Positions 43,186 to 48,326 of a DNA stretch of 64,000 nt are shown one piece after another (positions within the stretch are counted from its first letter, which is position 1; each line of letters begins with the position of its first letter). The stretch is taken from contig CAKPEJ010000002.1 in assembly GCA_934149325.1 (NCBI GenBank), positions 10,194 through 74,193 of the forward strand, read 5' to 3'. The DNA is from an uncultured Bacilli bacterium. GTDB taxonomy: Bacteria; Bacillota_I; Bacilli_A; RF39; UBA660. The notes beneath the pieces were generated by a model, which had not been told where the DNA came from, did no database searches, and saw only the letters and a list, made by a program, of their open reading frames with translations. The position numbers and the translations under genes are program-made.

Positions 43186-43269
43186 TTATTTACCACAACA
43201 TTGTTTATATTTGCGTCCTGAGCCACATGGTAAGATATTAAAACAAACTTGTAATTTTTTTCTTTTAAA
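43186..43269 (-). pseudogene. secA 3'-tail remnant 3: start-less 27-codon ORF ending ...[15 protein letters not shown] (SEC-C zinc motif)
   Basis: Hand translation of the reverse strand. In-frame stop immediately upstream and no ATG. Motif equals the SecA C-terminus ([15 protein letters not shown]). Confidence 0.6.
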
Positions 43270-43385
43270 TTGGTATTTTTTATTTCAAATTTATAATTTT
43301 TTATTGAAATATTGCAAGTATTTATTCAACAACTTATCTAAAAAACATTAAAATGTTTTATTTAATATCAAAAAATCTTGAATTT

Positions 43386-43817
43386 CTATCTCGAACCAAA
43401 TCCATGTTTCCCATCATCAATAATTAAATTATCTCTAATTCTCATTTTTTCAAAATAAAGCTTATTATATTCTACTGCTTTATCAATATTTCCCCATTCT
43501 TTTCCATCTAATGATTTAAATGGTTTAATAGAAGCTTTATCAATGTTATCAATATTCTCTTGTGTATTTGTATCAACTAGATTTAATTCACTATCACTTA
43601 CTTCATCTTTTGGTGTATTAACCATATTATATTCACCAATGGAAACATCTGTTTTTAACTCATTTGTAATGCTATTATAATATGTCTCATTATATTGCAT
43701 CGCATCTTTTAGATTTGTCCACACTTTCCCATCTAGTGATGTACAAGGCATATTCATATCAATTTCTCCAAGTGTGTGTGATTGATTATTTACTCCATAA
43801 TTAATTCCATCATTCAT
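43386..43817 (-). CDS. Hypothetical protein (143 aa) with two internal ~22-aa repeats (SLDGKVWTNLKDAMQYNETYY / SLDGKEWGNIDKAVEYNKLYF)
   Basis: ORF with SD AGGAGG before ATG. Internal duplication visible in the translation. Confidence 0.5.
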   Translation of the reverse strand: MNDGINYGVNNQSHTLGEIDMNMPCTSLDGKVWTNLKDAMQYNETYYNSITNELKTDVSIGEYNMVNTPKDEVSDSELNLVDTNTQENIDNIDKASIKPFKSLDGKEWGNIDKAVEYNKLYFEKMRIRDNLIIDDGKHGFGSR

Positions 43818-43929
43818 ATTAATTCCTCCTAATAATATTATAACACACTTTTTAAATTTTAAGGCTGATTTAGCAAAAAAACTTATCTAAGACAAAAGAC
43901 ATGCCTATAATTACCTAAATATTGTAATC

Positions 43930-43974
43930 ATAGAAAAGCCCGCAATCACTTATTTTATGCGGATTCGCGGGCTT
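43930..43974 (-). terminator. Hairpin terminator (AAGCCCGCAATC/GATTCGCGGGCTT) following secA-tail remnant 2
   Basis: GC-rich 12-bp imperfect stem and 14-nt loop, then CUUUUCUAUG on the minus strand. Confidence 0.5.
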
Positions 43975-44695: not shown

Positions 44696-44752
44696 TTACC
44701 ACAACATTGTTTATACTTGCGTCCTGAGCCACAAGTTCGTTCTTTTTCAGTA
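44696..44752 (-). pseudogene. secA 3'-tail remnant 1: start-less 18-codon ORF [18 protein letters not shown]
   Basis: Same SEC-C motif and ~40 nt near-identical to remnant 3. TAG stop directly upstream. Confidence 0.55.
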
Positions 44753-44976
44753 TATATGATACTATGAAATATATATAGTATTATATATTTTTCAAGGAAA
44801 ATGGATCTGGACGGTATTGGTATTATGTCATACATATAGTATATATAGAACTATACAATTTTTAATTTTTGCACACAAATTGAACACATTGTTATCATCA
44901 TATCATTCGTTCTCTAAGTACATACTACCATTATGAAAAGCACAATTAATTTAACGACAATGTTGCTTCGATAAAA

Positions 44977-45552
44977 TTATTTGGTTTTTTTCGAAGATTT
45001 CTGTTTTATTAACTCACCCGCATAATTATAAATATTTAAAGGCAAATCATTTTTTTCACAAATTTCATATATTTTATCAACAAACAATTTGATTTCTTCA
45101 TGCTGTAGTTGTTCTTGTGAAAATGGAAGTATCAATCCTTCTATATATTCTAAATCAATTTTATTAGATACCTGTACTTCACCTATCGCAAGGCCTTTAG
45201 TTTGTTCTTTGGGAACAATTGGCACCTCTCTTGAAATAGCAAAGGCAATATAATTATAATTGAAGCAGGTATAATTTCCTTCATCTTTTTTATCAATACA
45301 TTTCTTTATAAATCTATTTTCCGGATCAGATAACGATACTCTATTTTTGTGAATATCTTCATCATAATACATCCATTTTTTATCTTCCGGTATATCAAGT
45401 TTAAAAGAGGGATTTCCATATTCAAAGTTAATACCTTCTTTCTCAAGAAAGCCACGTGAACAAATTGCTTTACTTTTTAGAATGTTGATTAATCTTTCAT
45501 AAGTTCTTTTATCATTAATATTACCAATTTGATGAATGTAATAATTTATCAT
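44977..45552 (-). CDS. Hypothetical protein (191 aa), first gene downstream of secA
   Basis: ORF. No recognisable domain. Confidence 0.5.
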   Translation of the reverse strand: MINYYIHQIGNINDKRTYERLINILKSKAICSRGFLEKEGINFEYGNPSFKLDIPEDKKWMYYDEDIHKNRVSLSDPENRFIKKCIDKKDEGNYTCFNYNYIAFAISREVPIVPKEQTKGLAIGEVQVSNKIDLEYIEGLILPFSQEQLQHEEIKLFVDKIYEICEKNDLPLNIYNYAGELIKQKSSKKTK

Positions 45553-45821
45553 TTGTAAACCTTCTTTCTCAAATTACTTTATTTAACACAACAACAATTA
45601 TATTTTTGAAGTAGTCAAAAATAGTCGCAAGTTTAATCTTTTACAATATACAATCAGTTATATTACAATTTTTGCAAAATTTAAAATATTTAAGCAGCTA
45701 TTATTTAAATGAAATATTGTTTTTTCATTTATGAGCACAAAATGTGCACAAATGGTGTTGTGTGCATAATTTTGTGCCTTTTTTTGACTATTGTCAAACT
45801 CACAATTACTTATAAAACAAG

Positions 45822-48326
45822 CTACTTTCCACAACAATTCTTATATTTCTTACCACTGCCACATGGACATAATTGATTTCTACCTATTTTTTCAACTTTT
45901 TTAGGTTTTCTTTTTACATCACCACTATTATCATTCGTTGATACTGGTTTTTCTACTTGTTTTCTTTCCAAGTTTTGTTTTATTTCTGCTTTTAATAAAT
46001 ATAATGTTGTTTCTTTATATATTGTATCAAGCATTTCATCAAATAAATCAAATCCTTCTTTTGTGTATGCAACAAGAGGATTAGTTTGTGCATAACTTCT
46101 TAAGTTAATACCTTCCTTTAGATGATCCATTGTATTTATATGTTCCATCCAATGAGTATCTATAACTCTAAGCATAATTACTTTTTCAAAGTCATTTATT
46201 ATTTCCTCTGGTAAATCACTTATTTTATTTTCATATTCACCAACTACTTTTTCTTGTAACATTTGAATAACATCTCTTGGGTCTTTATCATATATATCTT
46301 CAACTTTTATTTTAGTATTTTTAAGCAAATTTTCATTTACATATTCACAAATTTCAGAACAATCAAATTCTTCTAAAGTAGGTTGATTAATTAAATGTGA
46401 TGTTATAACATTTTCAACATGATTTTTAATTAATCTAATTATTGAATCATGTATTGAATCTTTATCTAATATTTCATTTCTTCTTTCATACATTATTTCT
46501 CTTTGTTTTGCCATAACATCATCATATTGAAGTAAATTTTTTCTTATGTCATAGTTATTTCCTTCAACTTTTTTTTGCGCTGTTTCAACATTTTTAGTCA
46601 TAGCTTTACTTCTTAAATTAATTGTTGTCCCAAGTCCAGCTGCCTGTAGTAAATCTTTAAATCTATCTGTTCCGAATCTAACCATTAAATCATCTTCGAA
46701 ACTTACATAGAATTGAGTATAACCTGGATCTCCTTGACGTCCTGCACGACCTCTAAGCTGATTATCTATACGTCTTGATTCATGTCTTTCTGTACCTATT
46801 ACGCATAAGCCACCTAATTCTTTTACACCTTTACCAAGTTTAATATCGGTACCACGACCAGCCATATTTGTTGCGATTGTAACTGAATTCATTTCACCTG
46901 CTTTTGCTATTATCTCTGCTTCACGAGCATGATTCTTAGCATTTAAAACTTCATGTTTAATTTTTTCTTTTTTTAGCATTTCACTTATTAATTCACTAGT
47001 TTCAATTGCAATTGTACCAACTAATATTGGTTGACCTGTTTTATGTCTTGTTTTAATTTCTTCAATGATTGCCTTATATTTATCTTTTTTTGTTGCAAAA
47101 ATTAAGTCTGCCATATCTTGTCTAATAATTGGTTTATTAGTAGGTATTTCAATTACATACATGTTATATATTTCTCTAAACTCTTCTTCTTCTGTTTTTG
47201 CAGTACCTGTCATACCTGATAATTTTTTATACATTCTAAATAAATTTTGGAATGTAATAGTTGCAAGAGTTTTTGTTTCCTCTTGAATTTGTACTCCCTC
47301 TTTTGCTTCTATTGCTTGATGTAATCCTTCAGAGAATGCACGACCCTTCATTAAACGCCCTGTAAATTGATCAACTATTACAACTTCTCCATCTTGAACT
47401 ACATAATCCACTTCATTTTTCATAGTAAAGTTTGCTCTCAAAGCTTGATTTACATGATGAACTAAAGCTGAATATTGTATATCATACATATTATCTATAT
47501 GATAAAATTTCTCACATTTTCTTGATCCTTCATCAGTTAAACTTATACTATTAGTTTTTTCATCAATAGTGAAATCTTCATTTTCCTTTAATTTACATAC
47601 GAATCTTTGTGCATCCATATATTGATTTGTTGAATGCATTGCCCCACCAGATATTATAAGTGGTGTTCTTGCTTCATCTATCAATACTGAGTCAACCTCA
47701 TCAACTATTGCAAAATTTAATGGTCTTTGAACTCTATCTTCTTTTCTTATAACCATGTTGTCACGTAAATAATCAAAACCTATTTCATTATTTGTTGAAT
47801 AAAGAATATCACAGTTATATTGTTCTCTCTTTTCTTCTGGTGATAAATCTCTACCATTAATTCCAACAGTTAATCCTAGAAATTTAAAAATTTGACCCAT
47901 CCAGTTTGCATCACGAGAAGCAAGGTATTCATTGACTGTTACAATATGAACTCCTTCACCTGTTAATGCATTTAAATATGCAGGCATAACAGATGTTAAT
48001 GTTTTACCTTCACCTGTCTTCATTTCAGCGATATTACCGCCATTAATTGCAAGTGCACCAAGAATTTGTGTATAAAAAGGATATTCATTTATTACTCTTT
48101 TAGCAGCTTCTCTTACGGTAGCAAACGCATCTACAGTTATATCATCTAATGTTTCCCCATTTTTTAATCTATCTTTAAATTCATTTGTTTTTTCTTTTAA
48201 CTCTTCGTCTGACAATGCTTTATATTCTTCACTCTTCTCTTCAATCTTATCAGCTATTGCCATATTTTTTCTTAATTCTTTGTATTCAAAATCGAATAAT
48301 CTTCTTAATATGTTCAAAATATTCAT
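45822..48326 (-). CDS. secA: Preprotein translocase ATPase SecA
   Basis: 834 aa. DEAD-like motor motifs, C-terminal SEC-C zinc-binding tail [15 protein letters not shown]. Confidence 0.95.
   Translation of the reverse strand: [834 protein letters not shown]

Follow-up and report, generated by a model that had tools for sequence, protein, structure and literature searches.

In a 64,000-nucleotide stretch of the genome of an uncultured Bacilli bacterium (contig CAKPEJ010000002.1; hereafter the window), secA is followed by an array of partial copies of its own 3′ end, which we call tails, with small genes between them. The secA 3′ end is very probably an attachment site (attB) for the tyrosine integrases of temperate phages and integrative mobilizable elements (IMEs) in RF39-type Bacilli, and the tails are the scars of attachment sites. 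The host genome has a GC content of ~25% and is of the RF39 / 'Clostridium sp. CAG:433' type, and its SecA is 67–85% identical to the SecA proteins of 80 metagenome-assembled genome (MAG) loci of RF39-type Bacilli. The tails delimit four core-to-core units, E1 (~45858–44734), E2 (~44728–44015), E3 (~44008–43228), and E4 (~43221–41424), which are 0.7–1.8 kb in size and contain one or two genes each. Coordinates refer to the window, and all features lie on the minus strand, which is that of secA, unless stated otherwise. Comparison loci and contigs are designated by L numbers.

In the mechanism that we favour, strand exchange, whose exact cleavage positions we infer, would occur in or beside TGTGGY, which encodes Cys-Gly in the zinc-binding CGSG motif and lies 39 nt ahead of the stop codon. 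Each element would carry its own version of the remaining 12 codons and a terminator on its P′ side. Because the element supplies a replacement tail, SecA would stay intact, and the earlier tail would end up at the distal end of the element. The array would arise when integration into resident or displaced tails is repeated and the integrase and most genes of the elements are then lost.

Crossover point in same-species variants

Three variants of the array with identical flanks were found for the species of the window in metagenomes. V1 has the gene order secA-191-139-143-277 (numbers are protein lengths) and is that of the window, V2 is without the 191-aa unit, and V3 is without the 191-aa and 277-aa units. 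V2 and V3 miss window positions 45858–44736 exactly, which is the 1,123-nt E1, and their secA ends in the sequence of tail 1 plus its downstream DNA. The sole overlap at the E1 junction (BLAST breakpoint 45859/44735) is TGTGGY, so that the occupied and empty sites differ exactly at a short common core. The precise joining of the E1-free strains at this core indicates that an exchange at the Cys-Gly codons inserted or excised E1, which brought its own tail. As the target is a protein-coding tail, integration can change amino acids, and the SecA C-termini with and without E1 differ by K/R and Q/N changes.

Tails of secA in the window

The secA gene (45822–48326) is an open reading frame (ORF) of 834 aa. 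SecA Pfam domains were called on its counterpart in L091, and a look-up of the exact window protein found no identical record. The resident tail, tail 0 (45822–45863), starts with the core TGTGGC (45863–45858) and continues with the 12-codon tail assigned to E1; it corresponds to attL, and V2 and V3 have in its place a different tail, which is identical to tail 1. Tail 1 (44692–44733), the resident secA tail in strains without E1, corresponds to attR of E1 and the left core of E2. Tail 2 (43973–44146, core 44014–43973) is a secA-like segment that acts as the P arm of E2, and its 57 open codons from 44146 are collinear with the SecA C-terminus, as an initial annotation made from the sequence had proposed. 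Tail 3 (43186–43227) corresponds to the right core of E3 and the left core of E4. Tail 4 (41397–41423), encoding PCGSGNKYKQ, breaks off after ...AAGCAAT, where a RhuM 3′ fragment is joined to it; a complete counterpart with the same arm is located in L099 at 13490. Tails 0–4 thus form direct end repeats comprising the 3′ end of the target gene. The initial annotation had listed three further tails on the secA strand, all of which are present, although its coordinates were a few bases off and it missed the truncated fourth copy (41423–41397).

The 42-nt cores of copies 1–3 are 88–98% identical among themselves and 69% identical to the resident tail (45863–45822). The earlier view that the copies are closer to each other than to the resident tail therefore stands, and the string quoted as shared by them is present. 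All copies had also been described as start-less. This is correct for copies 2 and 3, which have no start codon, but copy 1 is contained in a 47-codon ORF that begins with ATG (44835–44692). The segment 5′ of copy 1 is a conserved non-coding arm, with stop codons in other genomes. Terminator-like hairpins, which had been noticed behind two copies, are located 3′ of tail 2 (43936–43972; −17.5 kcal/mol, z −3.7) and tail 3 (43142–43174; −19.6 kcal/mol, z −5.3), each with a U run next to it; the former is conserved behind many resident secA tails. Both hairpins escaped a consensus terminator scan, as their loops are longer than 8 nt, and were confirmed by folding.

The independent assembly L091 is 99.99% identical to the window array over 13 kb, and the array is therefore not an assembly artefact. 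The tail motif was found neither on the opposite strand nor upstream of secA in 1.2 Mb of the 80 loci, which indicates that the copies did not arise by chance. The distal limit of the array is a C-terminal gene fragment of RhuM (41158–41382; Pfam Virulence_RhuM, profile positions 201–248 of 252). In the region 41396–41440, tail 4 breaks after AAATACAAGCAAT and continues as this fragment. The same motif (AAACAATTAGATAC) reappears after another 35 nt, suggesting that a microhomology deletion or a pseudo-att event took place.

Integrases and prophages at the secA end of relatives

The survey set consisted of 80 species-level secA loci of RF39-type Bacilli. Six of the 80 contigs stop inside the tail and 17 stop within 300 nt after the secA stop codon, leaving 57 informative loci. 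One to five extra tails are present in 25 of these, and an integrase homologue is encoded downstream in 17, usually from ~220 nt past a tail. The sequences just 5′ of the copies form a few recurring non-coding classes.

Intact tyrosine integrases begin ~220 nt past the secA stop codon in L011, L015, L027, L045, and L079, so that the recombinase abutting secA for which the initial annotation had suggested searching in relatives does exist. A recombinase likewise lies beside an att site in L081, L136, and L169. The integrase domains are Arm-DNA-bind_4, Phage_int_SAM_3, and Phage_integrase. L011 encodes a second integrase together with a Rep-like protein, an HTH_17 excisionase (Xis), and a Mob_Pre relaxase, a combination that identifies an IME. 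The defining set of an IME, namely its own integrase with a relaxase or oriT, is present in L011 and absent from the window. Integrase fragments are found inside the arrays of L003, L005, L021, L025, L073, and L074. These array integrases are fragmented ORFs, which were recovered by clustering and tblastn. Array ORFs of ~340–380 aa were also considered as integrases and rejected, since Pfam found none among ten candidates.

The order in L081 is tail, two copies of TTAGATAAGTT, an integrase gene on the opposite strand (387 aa), and an S24 cI-like repressor gene. This second type of integrase belongs to temperate phages. In IMG/VR, two complete prophages (35 and 40 kb) lie between the secA end and a start-less tail and have matched arm pairs and the common cores CCTTGTGGAAGTGG and CCATGTGGCAGTGGTAA. 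Two kinds of element are thus present at the site, the IME type (integrase, Xis, Rep, and Mob_Pre relaxase) and temperate phages. The integrases and the 35- and 40-kb prophages contradict the possibility that relatives never carry mobile DNA at this position. Together with the exact presence or absence of E1 at TGTGGY, they bear out the serial integration at the secA 3′ end that had been proposed from the window.

Integrases of the IME type also adjoin start-less tails in viral contigs of 36–43% GC, which indicates that the site is used beyond the RF39-type clade; other Bacillota may likewise have elements that use the secA tail for attachment. Exact scans of viral contigs for an arm pair spaced by 12 nt and for a near-exact tail string gave no matches, whereas a degenerate tail pattern succeeded. 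Among deposited phages, no integrase was more than 35% identical to either class, and a search with the SEC-C peptide returned just unannotated faecal contigs and host secA fragments. Five IMG/VR contigs of 35–43% GC (L108, L115, L124, L168, and L173) have start-less or very short SEC-C tails beside integrases that are 45–47% identical to those of L011 and L027.

Arm repeats around the cores

Short repeats flank the cores at defined distances. The P′ arm of E1 (45731–45770) contains three TGTGCACA-like repeats, which are putative arm-type integrase sites. The same repeats occur at the same place in L043, L021, L049, L073, and L022, and an integrase or integrase fragment follows them in L043 and L021. 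On the P arm of E1 (44870–44888), ~140–155 nt before tail 1, two degenerate TGTG(T/C)(T/G)CA repeats align to an intact ATGTGCACATTTTGTGCTCA pair in L049, L022, and L021; L073 retains just the first repeat of the pair. E3 carries TTAGATAAGTT on its P′ side (43880–43890, +124 from the tail start) and on its P side (43331–43341, −114 from tail 3), and the latter copy is the breakpoint of the V3 deletion. The P′ arm of E4 (43002–43093) contains TTAGATAAGTT at 43093–43083 and 43012–43002 and TTAGATAAGTA at 43082–43072, and is 87% identical to the DNA behind the resident secA tail of L054. The P arm of E4 (41521–41543) contains TTAGATAAGTT and TTAAATAAGTT at −120 and −108 from tail 4. Matched arm sets are therefore found on three of the four units, with TGTGCACA-like repeats on E1 and TTAGATAAGTT on E3 and E4.

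The window contains five exact copies of TTAGATAAGTT, all of which lie on the secA strand between 41533 and 43890. In 1.26 Mb (loci and window) there are 45 exact occurrences. Of these, 32 are no more than 400 nt away from a tail; their offsets are +124/+135, +215, and −130/−118, and their strand is without exception that of secA. The complete prophages have the variants TTAGATACGTT and TTAGATACCTT paired on both arms, and IME-type elements have other repeats at the equivalent place (TGTGCACA, TTTGTCCAC, TTTCCTCA, and TGTTTGYAAA). The repeats thus differ by integrase class while their positions are equivalent.

Judged from its sequence, this arrangement is a lambda-type attP layout. As in lambda-type attP, a short core is flanked at ~115–135 bp on both sides by direct repeats, the arm-binding domain of the integrases is a separate N-terminal one, and the repeat is class-specific. 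Unlike in those systems, binding of the repeats by the integrase arm domain is here deduced from where the repeats lie and how they co-vary with the class of integrase.

Units and their cargo genes

E1, E3, and E4 keep matched arm repeats on both sides and are therefore similar to cis-mobilizable elements (CIMEs): each has a core at both ends (attL and attR), contains only cargo genes, and is devoid of integration and transfer genes. The units of the window are integrase-less and CIME-like, in agreement with their earlier description as decayed or CIME-like elements.

The 191-aa cargo protein of E1 (44977–45552) is predicted by modelling to adopt a DarT-like ADP-ribosyltransferase fold. It has no Pfam or PADLOC match. 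Its family is not limited to the secA locus, as a member lies behind serS in one organism, and no gene for a DarG macrodomain antitoxin partner was found in the E1 unit or in the serS context. The 139-aa protein encoded by the ORF of E2 (44231–44650) recurs in exact form in secA arrays from four or more other species contexts; its fold matches are at best weak and winged-helix-like. E3 contains the ORF for a 143-aa protein (43386–43817) with an internally duplicated motif of ~25 aa, present in two copies (SLDGKxWxNxxDAxxYNxxYY). This protein is a near-orphan, with just four homologue clusters in 5.8 billion proteins.

The cargo of E4 consists of a GNAT acetyltransferase pseudogene and a candidate defence gene. 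The pseudogene (42505–42971) showed 67% identity over 147 aa by tblastn to the intact 164-aa GNAT of L099, where Pfam called the domain, and Pfam on the concatenated window fragments gave no match. The candidate defence gene (41583–42416) encodes a 277-aa Bro-N / PDC-S13 protein (Pfam Bro-N; PADLOC PDC-S13, E 4e-100).

Beyond the array, the release factor 2 gene prfB (35290–36249; PCRF and RF-1 domains) forms a conserved anchor on the downstream side of the island. Its ORF starts at TTG and is without the usual N-terminus, as expected if a programmed +1 frameshift is present. The variable secA-prfB interval also contains, at 39459–41024, a gene for an HTH-WYL regulator (159 aa) followed by one for a 343-aa protein without a family match, and this pair could be a two-gene defence module.

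Units shared between species

The 139-aa unit is 96–99% identical across genomes in which secA is 71–84% identical. The identity block spans core to core, and the 57-codon secA-like segment moves along with it in six contexts. The unit is located directly behind secA, behind E1, behind an integrase fragment and a type I restriction-modification (RM) block, or behind four other genes. Copy 2 was considered as the ancestral displaced tail, given its 84–88% identity to the resident tails of L002, L003, and L005, and this candidate was rejected because the copy travels with the 139-aa gene.

The coding sequence of the 143-aa unit is 100% identical in L089, where the unit is bounded by cores and precedes the 139-aa unit, the reverse of the window order. 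The genome context differs in L089, and the 10 kb upstream contain no secA. A large serine recombinase of 560 aa (Resolvase, Recombinase, and Zn_ribbon_recom domains; L089/L090 7556–9578), encoded immediately upstream of the 143-139 units, ends by a RhuM fragment, and a different kind of element appears to have been inserted into rhuM within this island.

E4 in L099 has an intact GNAT gene and a truncated Bro-N gene, the opposite of the window. The arms of E1 hold an NTPase_I-T gene in place of the 191-aa gene in L022, L049, and L073. From tail 1 through to the Bro-N gene, the window and L002 share a block of 94–97% identity. Cargo across the arrays is very diverse, with ~76 clusters from 90 ORFs, nearly all co-oriented with secA, and is often defence-related (AbiE, AbiL, PDC-S05/S13/S22, and RM genes). 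The initial annotation had placed the newest unit nearest secA. The 191-aa unit is indeed the polymorphic one; however, the order of units changes between genomes.

Alternative explanations

Several observations weigh against the attachment-site explanation. Neither an integrase homologue nor a remnant was detected by tblastn in the 64-kb window, and present-day mobility is therefore unproven there. E2 has no recognisable arm repeats, and its left boundary is fuzzy: over the 13 nt that follow TGTGG the sequence is of K-type or R-type, and near-identity starts only behind them, a mosaic that does not agree with a single overlap of 6–8 bp. The second difference of V3 is a deletion between two arm-repeat copies (16–24 nt) and not a core event, and the fusion between tail 4 and RhuM is not a core event either. 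All data are metagenome assemblies, among which no excision product was seen.

The orientation of the copies as direct repeats on one strand would also be expected from local tandem duplication of the secA 3′ end and later divergence without mobile DNA. We give this explanation practically no credence, because the copies resemble tails from other species more closely than the resident one, the DNA that separates the tails is unrelated from one unit to the next and recurs in distant genomes, and relatives have integrases at the site. It is also very improbable that the copies are independent small genes for SEC-C zinc-finger peptides. Such genes would explain the ATG ORF around copy 1 and the ~38 open codons that class C copies keep in several genomes, but the start codon and conserved upstream coding sequence expected of a PF02810 gene were not found. 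Copies 2 and 3 cannot start on their own, many counterparts have a stop codon 1–4 codons upstream, the L002 and L005 versions contain in-frame stops, and what is conserved 5′ of each tail is the DNA with its arm repeats rather than a protein sequence. Spread of the units by homologous recombination following DNA uptake, with the tails and arms as portable homology and the integrases uninvolved, agrees with the origin of V3 between arm repeats of 16–24 nt, with the near-identical block from tail 1 to Bro-N in L002, and with the 170 nt of secA homology on E2. We consider it unlikely, since the E1 junction shares just TGTGGY and longer identical tail stretches such as TGTTGTGG are unused. Moreover, the E2 block begins at most ~18 nt after TGTGG in six contexts and not along the 170-nt homology, and integrases and whole prophages are present at the identical site.

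A further possibility extends the attachment-site explanation rather than excluding it. The units may be functional miniature elements that are moved in trans or as composites by the integrases of visiting phages and IMEs, with the secA-prfB interval as a cassette array in which accessory and defence genes would be shuffled between species. We take this possibility seriously while leaning against it. It would account for the matched arm pairs kept in E1, E3, and E4 and in L010, L069, L070, L054, L019, and L089, for the combination of one arm set with different cargo (the 191-aa or NTPase_I-T gene), for core-to-core units that are 96–100% identical between species and swapped in order in one genome, and for the many co-oriented cargo clusters. 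On the other hand, neither a circle nor trans-mobilisation was observed, E2 is without arm repeats, co-orientation follows from the usual gene orientation in phages and IMEs, and transfer as a composite passenger or homologous recombination would yield an equal pattern. The units may still be movable by an integrase in trans or as part of a composite. We think it rather doubtful that the secA-prfB interval as a whole is a phage- and IME-driven cassette array, in which integrase-less units (a tail core, a pair of arm-site sets, and one or two accessory or defence genes) are excised, reshuffled, and spread between species by visiting integrases.

Other features of the window

A second variable spot, which is without secA tails, is located between a Ham1 gene and a 189-aa gene (window 37243–37824, plus strand; L088 15718–18970). 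The 193-aa gene of the window is replaced there by 332-, 104-, 122-, and 447-aa genes in V2 strains. Contigs of this species carry an agr-like quorum-sensing set upstream of secA (window ~52900–55200; L088 1–1872), made up of AgrB, an AgrD-like peptide of 37 aa, a histidine kinase, and a response regulator. A single ORF of 4,732 codons occupies 901–15099, and an ORF of 943 codons follows at 15141–17972.

Discussion

The mechanism described here is already known, whereas the secA target and the lineage appear undescribed. Searches of a literature library found no relevant paper on the secA end as an att site, in agreement with the initial annotation, and the word 'secA' is absent from the text of two surveys covering ICEs (integrative and conjugative elements) and IMEs (PMC5357655, PMC5704250). 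The data fit a published model in which housekeeping genes have CIMEs and tandem accretion at their 3′ ends (PMC5704250), exemplified by ICESt1/ICESt3-type elements at the fda 3′ end of Streptococcus thermophilus (Pavlovic 2004 and Bellanger 2011, as reported in PMC5704250). Like the fda CIMEs, the units described here are integrase-less, lie between att sites containing a gene 3′ end, form arrays by successive integration and decay, and could be mobilised as composites. They differ in the secA target, the RF39-type host, the unit size of 0.7–1.8 kb, and the involvement of both prophages and IMEs. Streptococcal IMEs target 3′ gene ends such as those of rpsI, rpmG, and tRNA-Lys and are often in tandem with decayed elements (PMC5357655, PMC5704250). 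The L011 element resembles them in its tyrosine integrase, Xis, and MobV/Mob_Pre relaxase, whereas the window itself has neither integrase nor relaxase.

Prophages and islands at the 3′ ends of tRNA and tmRNA genes similarly bring a replacement 3′ end and leave the displaced end at the far junction; the target here is instead a protein-coding tail with a zinc-binding motif. The array also resembles integron cassette arrays in its small, mostly single-gene, co-oriented units between recombination sites and in its variable content and order. It is not an integron, however, as the window has no integrase beside secA and no resident intI, attI, or Pc, its boundaries are secA tail cores rather than attC hairpins or imperfect palindromes, and terminators follow two of the tails. 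The cassette array, if true, would be a functional analogue of the integron based on lambda-type recombination at an essential gene.

Integration at secA explains the frequent assembly breaks at this gene in an abundant uncultured gut lineage (23 of the 80 contigs). The secA-prfB interval is a place to seek strain-variable accessory and defence genes, such as those for PDC-S13, AbiE, AbiL, restriction-modification, and DarT-like proteins. The defined core and class-specific arm repeats provide testable integrase/att pairs, which could become genetic tools for organisms that have none. With secA, an essential gene joins the protein-coding targets of site-specific integrases, and integration rewrites the zinc-binding C-terminus of its product.

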